Shown here piece by piece: positions 8,808 to 16,592 of a DNA stretch of 50,095 nucleotides. The position numbers and the translations under genes are program-made. This stretch comes from a virus (Duplodnaviria > Heunggongvirae > Uroviricota > Caudoviricetes): the IMG/VR virus record IMGVR_UViG_646564533_000009, one strand, 5' to 3'. The notes under the pieces are model-generated. The model ran no database searches and was not told the origin of the DNA. It was given only the letters and a program-made list of their open reading frames with translations. Numbering within the stretch: position 1 is the first letter of the stretch; every line of letters starts with the position of its first letter.

Positions 8808-9261
8808 GCAGCAAATCCGGCAGGTCTGCCGCCAGTGCATGGACCGCTGCCGGGCGGGTGAAACATGGCCTCCGGACCTGGCTGAGTTTGTGGCACTGAT
8901 TTCGAAAAGCGGAGCCAATCCATTCGGTCTGACGGTGGATGCTGTGATGGAGGAGTACCGCCGCTGGCGCAATGAGTCCTGGCGATACGACGGAAGTGAT
9001 AAGTACCCGTGGTCTCAGCCTGTGCTGTATCACATTTGCCTCGAGATGCGTTCAAAGGGGATTGAGCGCCAGATGACCGAAGGGGAATTAAAACGGCTTG
9101 CAGAACGGCAACTGACGAAATGGGCAAAGCATGTTAGTAACGGCCTGAGCGTTCCGCCAGTCCGGCGACAACTGGCGGCCCCCAAACGCCCGTCGGGGCC
9201 AACGCCAATTGAGTTGCTGAAACAGGAATATGAACGCCGGAAAGCGGCTGGTTTTGTTTGA
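8596..9261 (+). CDS. Replication protein P-like (DnaB helicase loader)
   Basis: 221-aa ORF; C-terminal half aligns by eye with lambda P (…EYRRWR…YPWSQPVLYHI…LTEGELKRLAERQL…); good RBS (aaagggg) before the ATG at 8596. Start is ambiguous (8596 vs 8800). Confidence 0.7.
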   Translation: MQQHQVAPHHGQFRKFGQHVSSGNVKTDLSATETAWKLWELMGVVYSNRWIQKNGAAPSKLWIAQIGAMTEQQIRQVCRQCMDRCRAGETWPPDLAEFVALISKSGANPFGLTVDAVMEEYRRWRNESWRYDGSDKYPWSQPVLYHICLEMRSKGIERQMTEGELKRLAERQLTKWAKHVSNGLSVPPVRRQLAAPKRPSGPTPIELLKQEYERRKAAGFV

Positions 9262-9294
9262 GTTGAGAAGTGATTTTTTACCGGGAGGAAATTT

Positions 9295-10029
9295 ATGGAG
9301 ACTGTTTTTGACGCACTGAAAGCGATGGGAAAAGCCACGTCGGTAGAGCTGGCTGCGCGACTTGATATCAGTCGTGAAGAAGTACTGAACGAGCTGTGGG
9401 AACTGAAAAAGGCTGGCTTCGTTGATAAAAGCGTATACACCTGGCGTGTGGCTGATAACAACGTTCAGCAGGAACAGCCAGCGCCAGAAGAAACCACCAC
9501 GGCAACAGAAGCGAAAATCTCAGAGTGCGATTTAACCGCGACGATTGAACAACGCGGACCACAAACGGCGGATGAACTGGCTACGCTGTTCGGTACAACA
9601 TCCCGCAAAGTTGCTTCAACGCTGGCAATGGCAATCAGCAAAGGTCGTCTGATTCGCGTAAACCAGAACGGTAAAATTCGTTACTGCATACCAGGTGATA
9701 ATTTACCAGCAGAGCCGAAAGTTGAATCGGTAGCGGAAACCGATGGTAAAGCCTTTCCTCAGCCAGCCGGTGTTGCGTTACCGGTACAGAAAGATGCAAC
9801 ACAGGAAGATATTAAAACAGAAACTGTGGCGGACATTGTGCAGTCGCTGCCATCGTTTACTGCAACGCGAGAAGATGATTTGATTTTGCCATCGCTGCAT
9901 ATGGCAAATCGCGAACTGCGTAGGGCGAAGAATCATGTCCAGAAGTGGGAGCGAGTCTGCGCCGCGCTGCGGGAGCTGAACAAGCACCGGGATATGGTTG
10001 CCGGGATTTGTCGGAAGTCCGGGCAATGA
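9295..10029 (+). CDS. Hypothetical protein with N-terminal winged-helix-like region
   Basis: 244-aa ORF following the replication genes; N-terminus (…[30 protein letters not shown]…) looks like a wHTH; function unknown. Confidence 0.55.
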
Positions 10030-10229
10030 GCGGATGGTGCAGGCCTGAAATCATGATACTAACAATGAAGGTAAAATGCATCGGCAGTCTGATTGGTCGT
10101 AGTGAGGCGGCGGTCAGGATGAAAGCCCAGGTTAAGGGAATAAGCCTGATTCTGCGGGGTGATTTTCACCAGTCAACAAAATATCCGTAGCGCGATAACG
10201 GTCAAAAATTATGGCGCTGACACTTTTGT

Positions 10230-10650
10230 GCCACTGGAGATGACTGTACCTAAGTTCAGGGGAGAAGAACACGTCCGGTGGGATGGTCGGGCCAGATTTA
10301 AAGGGCAGGTCATGGCTCCAGCCTGTACGCTGGCAATGGAGGCTGCCTGGCGGGAAATTGATATGGGAACCACGCCACTCAGGGATTTACTGCCGGTCCA
10401 GAGAATAAATTCCTGTTACGGTTACACCACTGTGATCTTGCAAGTGCAGGAAAGTAGGTCTACACGGTAACGCGAGTGCGTGTAACTTTTGATGTCATTC
10501 CCGTAGAAACACCGGACAAATTTTCGCTGACAGGTCATGCAGAAGGTATAAATCTGCAGATTATGGACAATTACGGATATCCGGCAAGAGCCGGAAAAAG
10601 CATGCCGCCTCTAATTCTCAGTGGAAGATGGACTTGATTATACTCATTGC
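10230..10650 (+). pseudogene. Fimbrial major-subunit-like remnant (frame-disrupted)
   Basis: Two frames carry fimbrial-subunit-like motifs (…RFKGQVMAPACTLA… and …GINLQIMDNYG…) resembling type 1 fimbrial subunits; no intact ORF. Confidence 0.3.
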
Positions 10651-10697
10651 ATTGTCAGAAATAGTTATCCATTAAAGGCTGGCTATTCCAAACAGGA

Positions 10698-10723
10698 TGT
10701 TGATTACAAAAATGTAATCAACA
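10698..10723. promoter_or_regulatory. Perfect 11-bp inverted repeat (tgttgattaca-aaaa-tgtaatcaaca) upstream of the binding-protein gene
   Basis: Seen directly in the sequence within an AT-rich putative promoter region about 165 bp upstream of the ORF at 10889. Confidence 0.35.
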
Positions 10724-10888
10724 TGTAAGGTTTATACTCTTCAATATGCGTATAATTTTCCTTATTTTGTTGACTTTAAATAACAAGCTATGCACGAGGT
10801 AAAGTCGGATAAGTTTATCTGGATGTAATATATATTATTTGTAGTGTTTATAACTTTATTTCATGATAACCAATAAAAGGAGTTTTTT

Positions 10889-11647
10889 ATGAGGAACATA
10901 ATGGCAGGTTTTTTAATATTCCTGTCTTCTGCTGCTTATGCTGATATCAATCTGTATGGTCCTGGTGGCCCGCATACAGCCTTGCTTGATGCAGCCAAAC
11001 TTTATGCCGAAAAAACAGGTATTATAGTGAACGTTCATTACGGCCCACAGAACAAATGGAATGAAGATGCCAAAAAAAATGCAGATATCTTGTTTGGCGC
11101 ATCAGAACAATCTGCTCTGGCTATCATTCGGGACCATAAAGACAGCTTCAGTGAAAAAGATATTCAGCCTCTTTATCTGCGAAAAAGTATTTTACTGGTA
11201 AAGAAAGGTAATCCTAAAAATATCCGGAGTATTGACGACCTGACCAGACCTGGGATTGGCGTAATTGTTAATGATGGTGGTGGTACCAGTAATACATCAG
11301 GCACTGGCGTCTGGGAAGATATTGCCGGACGTAAAGGGAATATAGAAACTGTCGCCGCAATCCGAAAAAATATTATTTTATATGCGCCCAATAGCGGAAC
11401 TGCACGTAAGGCTCTTGAGAATCAGCCTGGAGCAGATGTCTGGATAACCTGGGCTGACTGGGCAGCCAGTAATCCAGAAATTGGTGATGTCGTGGAAATA
11501 GCGCCAGACTACGTGATATGGCGTGATATGAACATTACAGTACGTCAGGATGCAAATGATGAAACCCGTCGATTTGCAGAATGGCTACAAACCGATGAAG
11601 CGGCGCCTGCATTCAAAAAATATGGCTGGACCAGGAAAGGCACTTGA
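10889..11647 (+). CDS. Secreted periplasmic substrate-binding-like protein (ModA/PBP-fold family)
   Basis: 252-aa ORF with a signal peptide (MRNIMAGFLIFLSSAAYA|D); architecture and C-terminus resemble molybdate/anion-binding periplasmic proteins; low-GC context with its own AT-rich upstream region. Confidence 0.7.
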   Translation: MRNIMAGFLIFLSSAAYADINLYGPGGPHTALLDAAKLYAEKTGIIVNVHYGPQNKWNEDAKKNADILFGASEQSALAIIRDHKDSFSEKDIQPLYLRKSILLVKKGNPKNIRSIDDLTRPGIGVIVNDGGGTSNTSGTGVWEDIAGRKGNIETVAAIRKNIILYAPNSGTARKALENQPGADVWITWADWAASNPEIGDVVEIAPDYVIWRDMNITVRQDANDETRRFAEWLQTDEAAPAFKKYGWTRKGT

Positions 11648-11883
11648 CATCCTCGTCCTTCAGGACGTGGATTCTTTTTCCGGATGCCGCGCCAGCGGCA
11701 TGTAGGGGCAGCTCACAAAACGGAAAAAATTGTACGCTAAGCCTCGCCAGGTGAACTGAATTCATTCCGATATGGGAATTCCCATATCGGGCGAAAACGG
11801 TTTGCTGTAACGGCAGAGTTAAGTAGGATTGCTGCGGGTGCTTGAGGCTATCTGCCTCGGGCATGAACACCAACGGCAGATAG

Positions 11884-11935
11884 ATAAAAGCCCCACCCGA
11901 CTATAAATCGAAGTGAGGCCCCTATATGCTCGTCA
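11884..11935 (-). ncRNA. sok: Predicted Sok-like antisense RNA
   Basis: Minus strand has a TTGACC -35-like element (plus 11964-11969) and a hairpin GCCUCAC…GUGGGGC followed by a U-run (ending near 11884), antisense to the mok/hok leader. Confidence 0.4.
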
Positions 11936-12138
11936 CATATAGATTGCCTCTTACGGACCGAAAGGTCAAGGAGAAGCAGGCTATGAAGCAGCAAAAGGCG
12001 ATGTTAATCGCCCTGATCGTCATCTGTTTAACCGTCATAGTGACGGCACTGGTAACGAGGAAAGACCTCTGCGAGGTACGAATCCGAACCGGCCAGACGG
12101 AGGTCGCTGTCTTCACAGCTTACGAACCTGAGGAGTAA
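11926..12138 (+). CDS. mok: Mok (in-frame N-terminal extension frame over hok)
   Basis: 70-codon frame sharing its stop with hok, as in chromosomal hok/mok loci. Confidence 0.6.
   Translation: MLVTYRLPLTDRKVKEKQAMKQQKAMLIALIVICLTVIVTALVTRKDLCEVRIRTGQTEVAVFTAYEPEE
11983..12138 (+). CDS. hok: Hok/Gef-family type I toxin
   Basis: 51-aa MKQQKAMLIALIVICLTVIVTALVTRKDLCEVRIRTGQTEVAVFTAYEPEE, very close to recalled Hok/Gef sequences. Confidence 0.9.
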   Translation: MKQQKAMLIALIVICLTVIVTALVTRKDLCEVRIRTGQTEVAVFTAYEPEE

Positions 12139-12206
12139 GAGACCAGGCGGGGGAGAAATCCCTCGCCACCTCTGATGTGTCAGGCATCCTCAACGCACCC
12201 GCACTT

Positions 12207-12232
12207 AACCCGCTTCGGCGGGTTTTTGTTTT
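12207..12232 (+). terminator. Rho-independent terminator after hok
   Basis: Hairpin aacccgc-ttcg-gcgggtt followed by a T-run. Confidence 0.6.
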
Positions 12233-12311
12233 TATTTTCAACGCGTTTGAAGTTCCGGACGGCGCCGGAATAGAATCAAAAATACTTAAGTAGCGCGCAG
12301 GGAGAAGAGGG

Positions 12312-12617
12312 ATGGACCCCGAACAGGGGGAGTGCTATTTATCTGGAAGGATTCTGTTGATGAAAATCGAAGAATTACGTGAAATTTTTAGTGAAGATGG
12401 CCTCTATACTGTGCGCGTTGAGAATGGCGCTATTGTCAGCCACTGCCGTATTAAATGTTTACAGTCTCTACATAGGAAGAGTGGAGCTGCGTTAATTTAC
12501 TTTGTGGATGGGCTTGTGACGGATGGTTTTATTTTGCGTGCAAATGAATTTGTCACATCGTTGCCGTCTCTGAAAGAAGCTGGGATTAAGGCTGGTTTTT
12601 CTGCTTTTGAAGATTAG
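12312..12617 (+). CDS. Hypothetical protein (possibly Rem-like)
   Basis: 101-aa ORF (85 aa from an internal Met) between hok and the DUF968 gene; the Qin prophage has a similarly sized gene in this position (weak recollection). Confidence 0.45.
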   Translation: MDPEQGECYLSGRILLMKIEELREIFSEDGLYTVRVENGAIVSHCRIKCLQSLHRKSGAALIYFVDGLVTDGFILRANEFVTSLPSLKEAGIKAGFSAFED

Positions 12618-12686
12618 TGAATTCATCTACAATTCAGCGCAGGGCTGAACCCCTGTTGAGTAACACTGTGCCACCGGAGAAAGCCG

Positions 12687-12965
12687 ATGGCGCAAAATTC
12701 CAGACTACACAATTCTGATAATTCAGCCGTCTTTGCCAGCAGGCACGGGCGGCGTTCTCATGCATTCAAATCTGACTGGTTCCGGCACGCCCCATGCACT
12801 GAAGAACAGGCCGAATGGCTGATTCAGAACTACCGCAGACGTGGGTATGAGTTTAGGAAAGCCCTCAGCCTCGATTATCGTCACTGGATAATCTACGTCA
12901 GGCTGCCGTACTCCGAGCGCCCACCGCGTCCGTCCCGCACATTCCAGCAACGCATCTGGAGGTAA
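12687..12965 (+). CDS. Hypothetical protein
   Basis: 92-aa ORF upstream of the DUF968 gene; overlaps an antisense ORF, so coding status is uncertain. Confidence 0.3.
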   Translation: MAQNSRLHNSDNSAVFASRHGRRSHAFKSDWFRHAPCTEEQAEWLIQNYRRRGYEFRKALSLDYRHWIIYVRLPYSERPPRPSRTFQQRIWR

Positions 12966-15269: not shown

Positions 15270-15345
15270 GGCCCTTTAGCTCAGTGGTGAGAGCGAGCGA
15301 CTCATAATCGCCAGGTCGCTGGTTCAAATCCAGCAAGGGCCACCA
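15270..15345 (+). tRNA. ileZ: tRNA with CAU anticodon (ileZ-type tRNA-Ile2 / Met-like)
   Basis: Manual cloverleaf: acceptor ggccctt/aagggcc, anticodon loop cuCAUaa, T-loop ttcaaat, encoded CCA. Confidence 0.8.
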
Positions 15346-15346
15346 A

Positions 15347-15422
15347 CCGCCACTAGCCATCAGGAAAGAGCGTCAACCCTTTAAGTTGAGTGTGCGAGGT
15401 TCGAGTCCCCGGTGGTGGTCCA
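15347..15422 (+). tRNA. tRNA-like gene with atypical anticodon loop (argN position)
   Basis: Standard spacing: acceptor ccgccac/gtggtgg, U8A9, perfect anticodon stem tcaac/gttga, T-loop ttcgagt, encoded CCA. D-stem is weak and the anticodon loop reads ccuuuaa (C33; anticodon UUU by position), so identity is uncertain. Confidence 0.5.
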
Positions 15423-15435
15423 TTATCGGTATTCT

Positions 15436-15509
15436 GCGTTGTTAGCTCAGCAGGACAGAGCAATTGCCTTCTAAGCAATCGGTCACTGGTTCGACTCCAG
15501 TACAACGCG
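15436..15509 (+). tRNA. argO: tRNA-Arg (UCU anticodon)
   Basis: Manual cloverleaf: acceptor gcgttgt/acaacgc, D-arm gctc…gagc, anticodon loop cuUCUaa, T-loop ttcgact. Confidence 0.8.
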
Positions 15510-15681
15510 CTACACTTATTTTCCCGGCTCGCTTTTGCGGGCCTTTTTTGTATCTGCGCCACGCCCGGCGCATACCAACCACAGAGCCTTTCGGGGGGGA
15601 GCTTACGGAGTGGTCAGTGTGACTTTCTCTGTGGGCAGATCGCTCCCGGGCGTTGGCTCACCCACCCAAAGGAACGTCACG

Positions 15682-16113: not shown

Positions 16114-16592
16114 ACGGTAAAACTGCGCCTGACTGTGGCTGCACTCCTGCTGTTTCTGGTGGTGATGGTGGATTTCACCAGCAGAATCATGTCGGTGCTG
16201 GCGGATGGGGGGCTGGTCTGCGGCATTATGGTATTGCTGTGGCCGGTGATAAAAAGAAACAGCCTGCATAATGCTTGATTTTTTTGTTTGCTGTTTATTA
16301 AAAACACTTCTGCATGGTGAATCCCCCTGTGCGGTGGGGCAATCAGCAAGAAGGAATATGGGGTAATCGCGGATTCAGGTGCTGATACTGAATTCACCGG
16401 GAGGCACCCGGCACCATGCTTTGCCACAAAAGTGTTATTTCTGTTTTTCTCAAACTATCATCGTTATCCCTTTATTTTCGGCTGCGCATGGCGCGGCCTT
16501 TTTTTTACGACCAGCCACTGGCAGATGGTCATCCTGTGATTTGATTCCGCTTCCGGCTTTTTAACTCTGTTCCTCTACACGGGAGAAATTCG

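Follow-up and report, generated by a model that had tools for sequence, protein, structure and literature searches.

The DNA analysed here, a 50,095-nt stretch from a virus of the Caudoviricetes (IMG/VR record IMGVR_UViG_646564533_000009; hereafter the window), contains at positions 9295–12650 a segment that an annotation made from the sequence alone (the original prediction) had singled out as a low-GC island with unusual phage cargo, namely a secreted binding protein and a hok/sok locus. We found that the binding protein is the adherence-associated protein Paa/AdfO and that the toxin locus is ckf. Taken as one claim with the paa and hok/sok mechanism set out below, it is very probable that the segment corresponds to the early-region cargo slot of the ompW prophage known as CP-933O, OI-57, Sp9 or 'PPompW', with the replication genes on one side of it and the nin/Q block on the other. 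Because its sequence is exactly identical to named genes and to a described prophage, the locus is a known and ordinary one: it is a rediscovery of paa/adfO and ckf, the published marker pair of OI-57. The main value of the analysis is therefore negative, in that cargo flagged as unusual turned out to be a textbook virulence marker pair of enterohaemorrhagic, enteropathogenic and enterotoxigenic Escherichia coli (EHEC, EPEC and ETEC). Its second contribution is a map of how a cassette running from promoter to terminator moves between plasmids and a prophage cargo slot.

Identity and distribution of the locus

All 3356 nt of the segment matched several E. coli O55:H7 chromosomes with 100% identity, as part of a lambdoid prophage integrated at ompW, and the copies in O157:H7, O145, O111, O26 and O121 strains were 99.8% identical. 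At least 80% of the segment was present in 572 of 5426 complete E. coli genomes, and over 500 genomes have the locus at an identity of 99% or higher. The PPompW phage records, also 99.8% identical, annotate the gene as 'Paa/adherence factor AdfO' and label its neighbours gef and rem; in O55:H7 the RefSeq/PGAP gene order is DUF1627, a hypothetical gene, a frameshifted fimbrial pseudogene, paa, hokD and two hypothetical genes. The 252-aa protein itself was 100% identical to the RefSeq 'AcfC family adhesin Paa'.

The pair is equally familiar from the literature. In strain EDL933, OI-57/CP-933O lies in ompW and carries adfO (paa, z2053) together with ckf (z2054), a killer gene of the hok family, and the two have been reported always to co-occur (PMC9729726, PMC8565820); paa had already been remarked upon in the O55:H7 genome paper (PMC2806823). 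Protein (100%), prophage type, ompW insertion and ckf/hok neighbour are all the same as in OI-57/CP-933O, from which the present copy shows no substantive difference, having an O55:H7-like background and an extra insertion sequence (IS) in the capsid gene. The idea that the segment carries cargo of the lysogenic-conversion type was therefore sound, the gene being paa/adfO, whose mutants adhere less (PMC8565820), but that cargo is neither unusual nor new.

Mosaic structure of the segment

Domain searches bore out the proposed flanks, a lambda-P-like replication gene upstream (Table 1) and DUF968, RusA and Q downstream. A single moron island between these flanks was not borne out. Phage Rac 442/2 shares the backbone at 9260–9998 (ydaW) and at 11819–12694 (hok/sok and rem), and has lygF and small open reading frames (ORFs) between these two parts. 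A prophage of strain OkiPb01705 that lacks paa has the same order of P, DUF1627, hokD, DUF968, RusA and Q, and its homology to the window stops at 10197 and restarts at 11744. The DUF1627/YdaW-like gene, hok/mok/sok (ckf) and rem are thus conserved backbone, and only 10198–11743 is an insertion or replacement, about 1.5 kb long, composed of a dead PapH-like fimbrial fragment and a self-contained paa cassette of about 1.0 kb. The break at 10197 interrupts a small 'DNA-binding protein' gene, of which the 54-aa ORF is the truncated 5' part; the intact gene (85 aa) is present in a related prophage.

Base composition follows the same division. The low GC content attributed to the whole island is confined to the paa cassette (41.5%; 26.9% upstream of paa and 43.9% in its coding sequence). 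The window as a whole averages 51.9%, and the other parts deviate little from this: 51% in the DUF1627 gene, 48% in the fimbrial remnant and 53% in the hok locus.

The remnant of a fimbrial-subunit gene noticed in the original prediction proved to be part of a minor subunit gene of the PapH type (pi-class chaperone-usher), whose intact 588-bp counterpart is found in P-type chaperone-usher operons of E. coli ECC-1470 and of a plasmid from a pigeon isolate. Of the 195 residues of the subunit the fragment retains only 24–182, without signal peptide or C-terminal strand, and its frame is broken by two frameshifts and an in-frame stop; PGAP calls it a frameshifted pseudogene. Unlike in the intact operons, no usher or chaperone gene was found near it. 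It is a dead fragment and not an intact chaperone-usher subunit gene.

The paa cassette has sharp ends. Cassettes on many plasmids, among them enterotoxin plasmids, match 10685/10689–11707 at 86–89% nucleotide identity, the 5' end coinciding with the core of an inverted repeat and the 3' end lying after two hairpins, the second of which was read directly from the sequence; homology to the plasmids ceases at 11707. Since the fimbrial fragment, paa and the downstream spacer occur in nearly equal numbers of genomes (572, 572 and 576, respectively), the composite of fimbrial fragment and paa has a single origin and travels with the prophage. Just beyond the cassette, a perfect 24-nt palindrome (Table 1) lies in backbone DNA that is also present in the paa-less OkiPb01705 prophage, from 11744 onwards.

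In further Rac-like phages this position is filled by cargo of quite another kind; it is a general variable slot, as is usual for lambdoid morons. The equivalent slot of phage vB_EcoS-683R6 (locus L017, 5230–8741) holds part of a kinase gene together with genes for an FtsH-like ATPase and an S8 peptidase, and these may form a defence module or some other accessory one.

Structure and conservation of Paa

The paa gene is preceded by a Shine–Dalgarno sequence, AAGGAG, 6 nt before the ATG. Its product begins with a signal-like segment, MRNIMAGFLIFLSSAAYA followed by D, with n, h and c regions that end in AYA ahead of this D, so that residues 1–18 are a predicted signal peptide. The solved mature chains of PEB3 and AcfC begin at the residue equivalent to Paa 19, and Paa residues 1–18 have low predicted local distance difference test (pLDDT) values in the AlphaFold model. 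Overall this model (pLDDT 90.5) has a closed two-lobe class II periplasmic-binding-protein fold. The best sequence matches in the Protein Data Bank were PEB3 (E 1e-81) and AcfC (E 3.5e-81), and Foldseek aligned the model with Vibrio cholerae AcfC in complex with D-aspartate (4jb7; template modelling (TM) score 0.97, root mean square deviation 1.1 Å) and with Campylobacter jejuni PEB3 in complex with phospholactate (3fj7; TM score 0.96). The periplasmic-binding-protein fold that had been proposed for this protein thus found support, and the proposed signal peptide has a candidate in residues 1–18.

We aligned 34 homologues with 51–92% identity to Paa, from Enterobacterales, Aeromonas, Vibrio, Francisella, Helicobacter and Campylobacter. 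Invariant in all of them were GPGGPH (G24–H29), G70, S72, Q74 and S75 (GAS.QS), SNTSGTG (S134–G140), NSG (N168–G170) and W185, T187, W188, D190 and W191 (W.TW.DW), motifs that correspond to the loops building the anion pocket in the class II fold. Within SNTSGTG, Paa T136 and S137 correspond to PEB3 T138 and S139, the pair mutated in PEB3 T138A/S139A, which, from the PEB3 ligand study, we take to be ligand-site residues.

The two characterized relatives also differ from Paa. AcfC (52% identity) is, like Paa, an orphan binding protein on a mobile virulence island, and bears a signal peptide such as is predicted for Paa, but belongs to a ToxT-regulated operon of the toxin-coregulated pilus island and has been shown to be periplasmic and to act in chemotaxis to mucin, not in adhesion. 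PEB3 (54% identity; 2hxw, 3fj7 and 3fjg), in which the threonine–serine pair of the ligand loop is kept, is chromosomally encoded and has known ligands; it is N-glycosylated at a DFNVS sequon that is absent from Paa, and its K135 is replaced by threonine.

Differences between the prophage and plasmid alleles of paa were mostly synonymous, with a ratio of nonsynonymous to synonymous substitution rates (dN/dS) of 0.07–0.08, and in the EDL933 lysogen the gene is transcribed, its expression rising in contents of the bovine rumen and rectum (PMC8524897). The gene is intact and under strong purifying selection, and these findings speak for its being functional. A silent or decayed locus, one of two findings that the original prediction had said would count against it, is thus not what we see for paa.

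The upstream region of paa

An inverted repeat and an AT-rich promoter of its own had been proposed for paa. The repeat is real and perfect, although its arms are 12 nt long and not 11 (Table 1); in the whole window its 16-nt core is found a single time, where 0.03 occurrences would be expected. In an alignment of six diverged alleles (the prophage copy and plasmid copies from E. coli and Escherichia albertii), otherwise about 73% identical in this region, the core ATTACAAAAATGTAAT(CAA) was unchanged, as were the blocks ATT(A/G)CAAAAATGTAATCAA and GTAAGGTTTA and a TATAAT hexamer. Because the outer bases of the 12-nt arms vary in several plasmid alleles, the conserved unit is probably the core with its 6-nt arms plus CAA, some 27–54 bp upstream of the candidate -10 element. 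Upstream of the paa-family genes of Enterobacter, Edwardsiella, Francisella, Campylobacter and Vibrio the core was not present.

As no T-run follows it, the repeat was rejected as a terminator; it could instead be an activator or operator site, or an element resembling an UP element. Compared by eye with what we take to be their consensus sequences, it fits none of FNR, CRP, Fur, LexA, TyrR, ArgR or GntR-type sites. A promoter belonging to paa is plausible in view of the invariant TATAAT, but a scan for sigma-70 consensus sites revealed none matching at 9 or more of 12 positions between the repeat and paa (10690–10888), and no -35 element matching the TATAAT was recognised.

Orphan status and plasmid relatives of paa

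As had been stated of the binding protein, no transporter genes accompany it: no permease or ATPase gene of an ATP-binding cassette (ABC) system was found beside paa in the window. A cognate permease or ATPase was likewise lacking next to the family's genes in Enterobacter, Edwardsiella, Francisella, Campylobacter and Vibrio, each of which stands singly among genes unrelated to it; the ABC system closest to the Enterobacter gene comes with a binding protein of its own. Given that partner genes are absent in these five other genera too, the lack of a transporter partner is a trait of the whole AcfC/PEB3/Paa family and not a peculiarity of the phage copy.

The next-best folds for Paa were ModA and sulfate-, iron- and sugar-phosphate-binding proteins. 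With ModA, Sbp and CysP, Paa has in common the class II fold and anion-binding loops made of backbone amides, but only 12–19% identity, and it differs from them in lacking an adjacent permease or ATPase. A housekeeping ABC component of the Sbp, CysP or ModA type, the other finding that had been named in advance as telling against phage cargo, was rejected on this basis and on NCBIfam scores far under the family cutoffs: matches to sulfate-, thiosulfate- and molybdate-binding proteins were all sub-threshold, the best reaching 22.6 bits against a cutoff of 288 and that to modA 18.3 against 62.5.

Plasmid copies of paa, annotated as 'substrate-binding domain-containing protein', occur in ETEC, E. 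albertii and other E. coli. They form the same cassette, from the core of the repeat to the 3' hairpins, and their products share about 92% of amino acids with the prophage protein. Unlike the prophage copy they are flanked by IS or plasmid-replication genes, lack the fimbrial fragment and do not conserve the outer arms of the repeat. On plasmid pCFS3246-1 the cassette adjoins the STa toxin gene, and on one ETEC plasmid it has the STa enterotoxin gene on one side and IncFII repA on the other. We also observed an Fe-dependent alcohol/glycerol dehydrogenase gene next to paa-family genes on an E. coli plasmid (locus L004, 4507–5598) and on Edwardsiella chromosomes (loci L010 and L011, 7310–8410), which may be the remnant of an older shared module or a coincidence.

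The hok/mok/sok locus

The second known gene of the segment, ckf, is a hok/mok/sok locus that is architecturally complete, as originally predicted, with a toxin ORF, an overlapping mok, a putative antisense gene and a fold-back element. The Rfam model RF01794 ('sok') scored 103.9 bits (gathering score 59) at 11836–11985. Since this match is on the same strand as hok and extends up to its AUG, it represents the mRNA leader targeted by Sok. The HOK_GEF match covers the full Pfam model, corresponding to a toxin ORF of about 50 aa, which PGAP names HokD. The transcript ends in a canonical terminator and has a predicted minimum free energy of -166 kcal/mol (z -7.7), with GGGUGCUUGAGG near the 5' end pairing with CCUCAACGCACCC near the 3' end, closing the molecule; in hok/sok systems such a fold-back (tac/fbi) holds the full-length mRNA inert. 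On the other strand, the putative sok promoter was read from the sequence; the hairpin that follows, GGGGCCUCAC...GUGGGGCUUUU, has a predicted energy of -28 kcal/mol (z -4.1) and is succeeded by a U-run. An isrK-like Rfam match at 12147–12228, over the hok 3' untranslated region and terminator, reached 24.9 bits where the gathering score is 50, and we put it down to chance or to a resemblance between terminators.

The toxin ORF, the mok overlap, the antisense promoter with its hairpin and the fold-back are shared with hok/mok/sok of plasmid R1 and with chromosomal and prophage hok loci (hokD/'ckf', mokW); unlike the R1 locus, the present one is prophage-borne and is known here from sequence. 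Judged from this architecture, hok/sok would act through post-segregational killing to stabilise the defective prophage, and infections by other phages may be aborted by it as well.

Possible role of Paa

By analogy with its relatives, we infer that Paa passes through Sec into the periplasm, where it binds a small anion, and that its influence on adherence is indirect. The paa gene would be transcribed from its own AT-rich promoter, independently of the lytic programme of the phage. The precursor would be cleaved after Ala18, and the mature protein of about 25 kDa would close on a small phospho- or carboxy-acid anion in the periplasm, as PEB3 does on 3-phosphoglycerate, phosphoenolpyruvate (PEP) and citrate, and AcfC on aspartate and sulfated ligands. 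Liganded Paa would then promote adherence and colonisation by way of chemotaxis, signalling or secretion, and not as a classical surface adhesin.

That the effect on adherence is indirect and ligand-dependent is the account towards which we lean. Adherence is reduced in adfO and paa mutants, and fewer proteins are secreted by the adfO mutant, a pleiotropic defect suggesting that its effect on adherence is indirect (PMC8565820). AcfC is periplasmic and affects chemotaxis to mucin but not cell adhesion (PMC5976639), and PEB3 is treated in the literature as a transporter or binder of metabolites of the 3-phosphoglycerate type. Several points weigh on the other side. According to reviews that cite it, Batisson 2003 described Paa as an adhesin in early attachment. 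The ligands considered for Paa are those of its relatives; no E. coli partner, whether chemoreceptor, sensor kinase or transporter, was identified. PEB3 K135, which reportedly affects ligand stabilisation, is threonine in Paa. Moreover, the roles of the paa promoter and of the inverted repeat are read from the sequence, and the function of hok/sok from its architecture.

The most direct alternative is that Paa is a genuine adhesin exposed at the cell surface, which binds components of host cells or mucus such as sulfated glycans. The passages of reviews that treat Paa speak of paa/adfO mutants adhering less to pig ileum or HeLa cells and of Paa and PEB3 as 'considered adhesins', and purified AcfC binds heparin, chondroitin sulfate and mucin in enzyme-linked immunosorbent assays, that is, sulfated glycans in vitro. 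Nevertheless, the ORF listing and domain searches revealed no outer-membrane anchor, lipobox or autotransporter/usher signal in Paa, and the closed two-lobe fold buries an invariant pocket fit for a small ligand. Together with the periplasmic location of AcfC, the loss of which leaves cell adhesion unchanged, and with the secretion defects of the adfO mutant, this makes a surface adhesin rather unlikely. Still less probable, in our judgement, is a component of nutrient uptake that serves a chromosomal transporter encoded elsewhere and gives the lysogen an advantage in the gut by capturing a phosphorylated or carboxylated metabolite, although such a role overlaps with both the indirect and the surface-adhesin accounts. 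It would suit the description of PEB3 as a transporter of 3-phosphoglycerate-type metabolites, the nearest folds outside the family (ModA and the sulfate- and sugar-phosphate-binding ABC components) and the increased expression of paa in gut contents (PMC8524897); it is hard to reconcile with the lack of a permease or ATPase beside family members in the six genera examined, with the low scores against NCBIfam transporter equivalogs and with there being no known E. coli partner.

The remaining two possibilities are remote by comparison. The original prediction had raised the idea of an exclusion factor, and paa does lie in a variable early slot that elsewhere holds diverse cargo, including the kinase, ATPase and peptidase of vB_EcoS-683R6. 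Yet PADLOC searches with six proteins of the region found no defence component, giving nothing for Paa, Hok/Mok, rem or the small ORFs and for DUF1627 only weak matches (E 1e-4 or worse) to the helix–turn–helix (HTH) portions of Csa3/CARF-type regulators; many genera have kept the same gene on plasmids or chromosomes outside any phage context, and the published phenotypes concern adherence and chemotaxis. A superinfection-exclusion or anti-phage role for Paa is accordingly most improbable, and if the region excludes phages at all, hok/sok is likelier to be responsible than the binding protein. Hardly any credence attaches to the view that the whole segment is decaying junk in a defective prophage, for which the truncated or frameshifted fimbrial piece and small DNA-binding gene, the IS in the capsid gene and a portal gene annotated as frameshifted in the reference strain might be cited. 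For paa this view is already refuted by conservation and published transcription: the gene is intact, with a low dN/dS and near-identical copies in hundreds of genomes, and is transcribed and regulated (PMC8524897), and hok/sok keeps every structural element.

As to the place of Paa between adhesin and periplasmic ligand sensor, the invariant pocket and the family-wide orphan status argue that the conserved activity is ligand binding and not adhesion in itself. A further-reaching and tentative proposal, possible but on the whole doubtful, is that Paa is not an adhesin at all but a periplasmic sensor, spread by phages and plasmids, of a small anion derived from the gut (of the 3-phosphoglycerate, PEP, aspartate or sulfated-sugar class), which would signal to a chromosomal chemoreceptor, sensor kinase or secretion machinery, its expression being set by a regulator that binds the invariant element ATTACAAAAATGTAATCAA at the 5' edge of the cassette.

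Other features of the prophage

Table 1. Positions in the window of the features discussed in the text.
Feature	Position	Strand	Evidence or remark
Lambda-P-like replication gene	8596/8800–9261		Upstream of the segment; Pfam Phage_lambda_P E 1e-16
DUF1627/YdaW-like gene, 244 aa	9295–10029	+	Pfam DUF1627 E 8e-93; phrog_630 E 7e-123
54-aa ORF	10026–10190	+	phrog_30109 E 6e-17; overlaps DUF1627 stop codon
PapH-like (pi-class chaperone-usher) minor fimbrial subunit fragment	10223–10687	+	85–86% nucleotide identity to intact gene
Perfect inverted repeat ATGTTGATTACA/TGTAATCAACAT, 12-nt arms, loop 4	10697–10708/10713–10724	.	5' edge of paa cassette
Candidate -10 hexamer TATAAT of putative paa promoter	10751–10756	+	Invariant in six prophage and plasmid alleles
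paa/adfO, 252 aa, predicted exported orphan substrate-binding protein of AcfC/PEB3 family	10889–11647	+	Pfam SBP_bac_11 E 5e-34
3' end of paa cassette	11654–11701	+	Terminator-like hairpin with T-run, 11654–11677; GC hairpin ATGCCGC-GCCA-GCGGCAT, 11684–11701
24-nt perfect palindrome CCGATATGGGAATTCCCATATCGG	11767–11790	.	Self-match; about 45 nt upstream of hok mRNA start
hok mRNA (ckf of OI-57), about 397 nt	11836–12232	+	Rfam RF01794; Pfam HOK_GEF E 3e-23; phrog_251 MokW-like
Parts of hok transcript	5' leader; mok 11926–12138; hok 11983–12138; 3' fold-back 12188–12200; terminator 12207–12224		
Putative antisense sok gene	11885–11969	-	-35 TTGACC, 11969–11964; 17-nt spacer; -10 CAATCT, 11946–11941; then hairpin and U-run
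rem-like small phage gene, backbone	12357–12617	+	rem in PPompW and Rac records; phrog_340 E 1e-23

The 244-aa protein that had been described as a winged HTH protein is indeed one by all indications. It belongs to DUF1627 (308.7 bits against a cutoff of 28.1), has a sub-threshold match to Pfam HTH_20 at residues 4–44, and its AlphaFold model shows an HTH at 4–39, a second, winged HTH at 77–131, a long C-terminal helix and two disordered linkers, with modest confidence (pLDDT 60 overall and 70–82 in the domains). The gene is 76% identical at the nucleotide level to ydaW of phage Rac 442/2, and its position after the replication genes is kept in Rac, vB_EcoS-683R6 and the OkiPb01705 prophage; with 2724 database relatives, the protein is a very common one in prophages. 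The rem-like gene at the other end of the segment has 79% nucleotide identity to phage Rac.

Elsewhere in the window, two inverted copies of an IS3-family element (ISEc31/IS629-like) lie at 24219–25478 and approximately 42515–43775, and Rfam 'isrC' matches at 24288–24410 (+) and 43583–43705 (-) fall within them. The first copy, absent from the O55:H7 reference RM12579, splits the major capsid gene some 100 bp after the start of its coding sequence; for the portal gene a frameshift is annotated in the reference strain, which concerns the reference and not the copy in the window. Because of the capsid-gene IS and the reference portal frameshift, taken together, we regard the prophage as defective.

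Three tRNA genes follow Q at 15270–15510 (Met/Ile2-type CAT, Lys TTT and Arg TCT), of which RefSeq annotates two in RM12579 and the PPompW records three. Downstream of them, in the interval between Q and the lysis genes, an Rfam match to the small RNA STnc100 was found at 16283–16455 (100.8 bits), and the stretch from Q to the holin gene also contains a pseudogene of the TerB family and a gene for a SASA-family (NanS-like) esterase. PerC and Pch homologues are known activators of the locus of enterocyte effacement, and a gene for a transcriptional regulator of the PerC family follows the lysis genes at about 20.5–20.8 kb (L001, 21230–21544). The right end, at about 45.5–50 kb (L018, 25987–27533), holds a second cargo cluster, with nleH1-2 and nleF, which encode type III secretion effectors; a degraded integrase and pieces of tail-fibre genes are there too, and in RM12579 an espO remnant lies just past the right end of the window.

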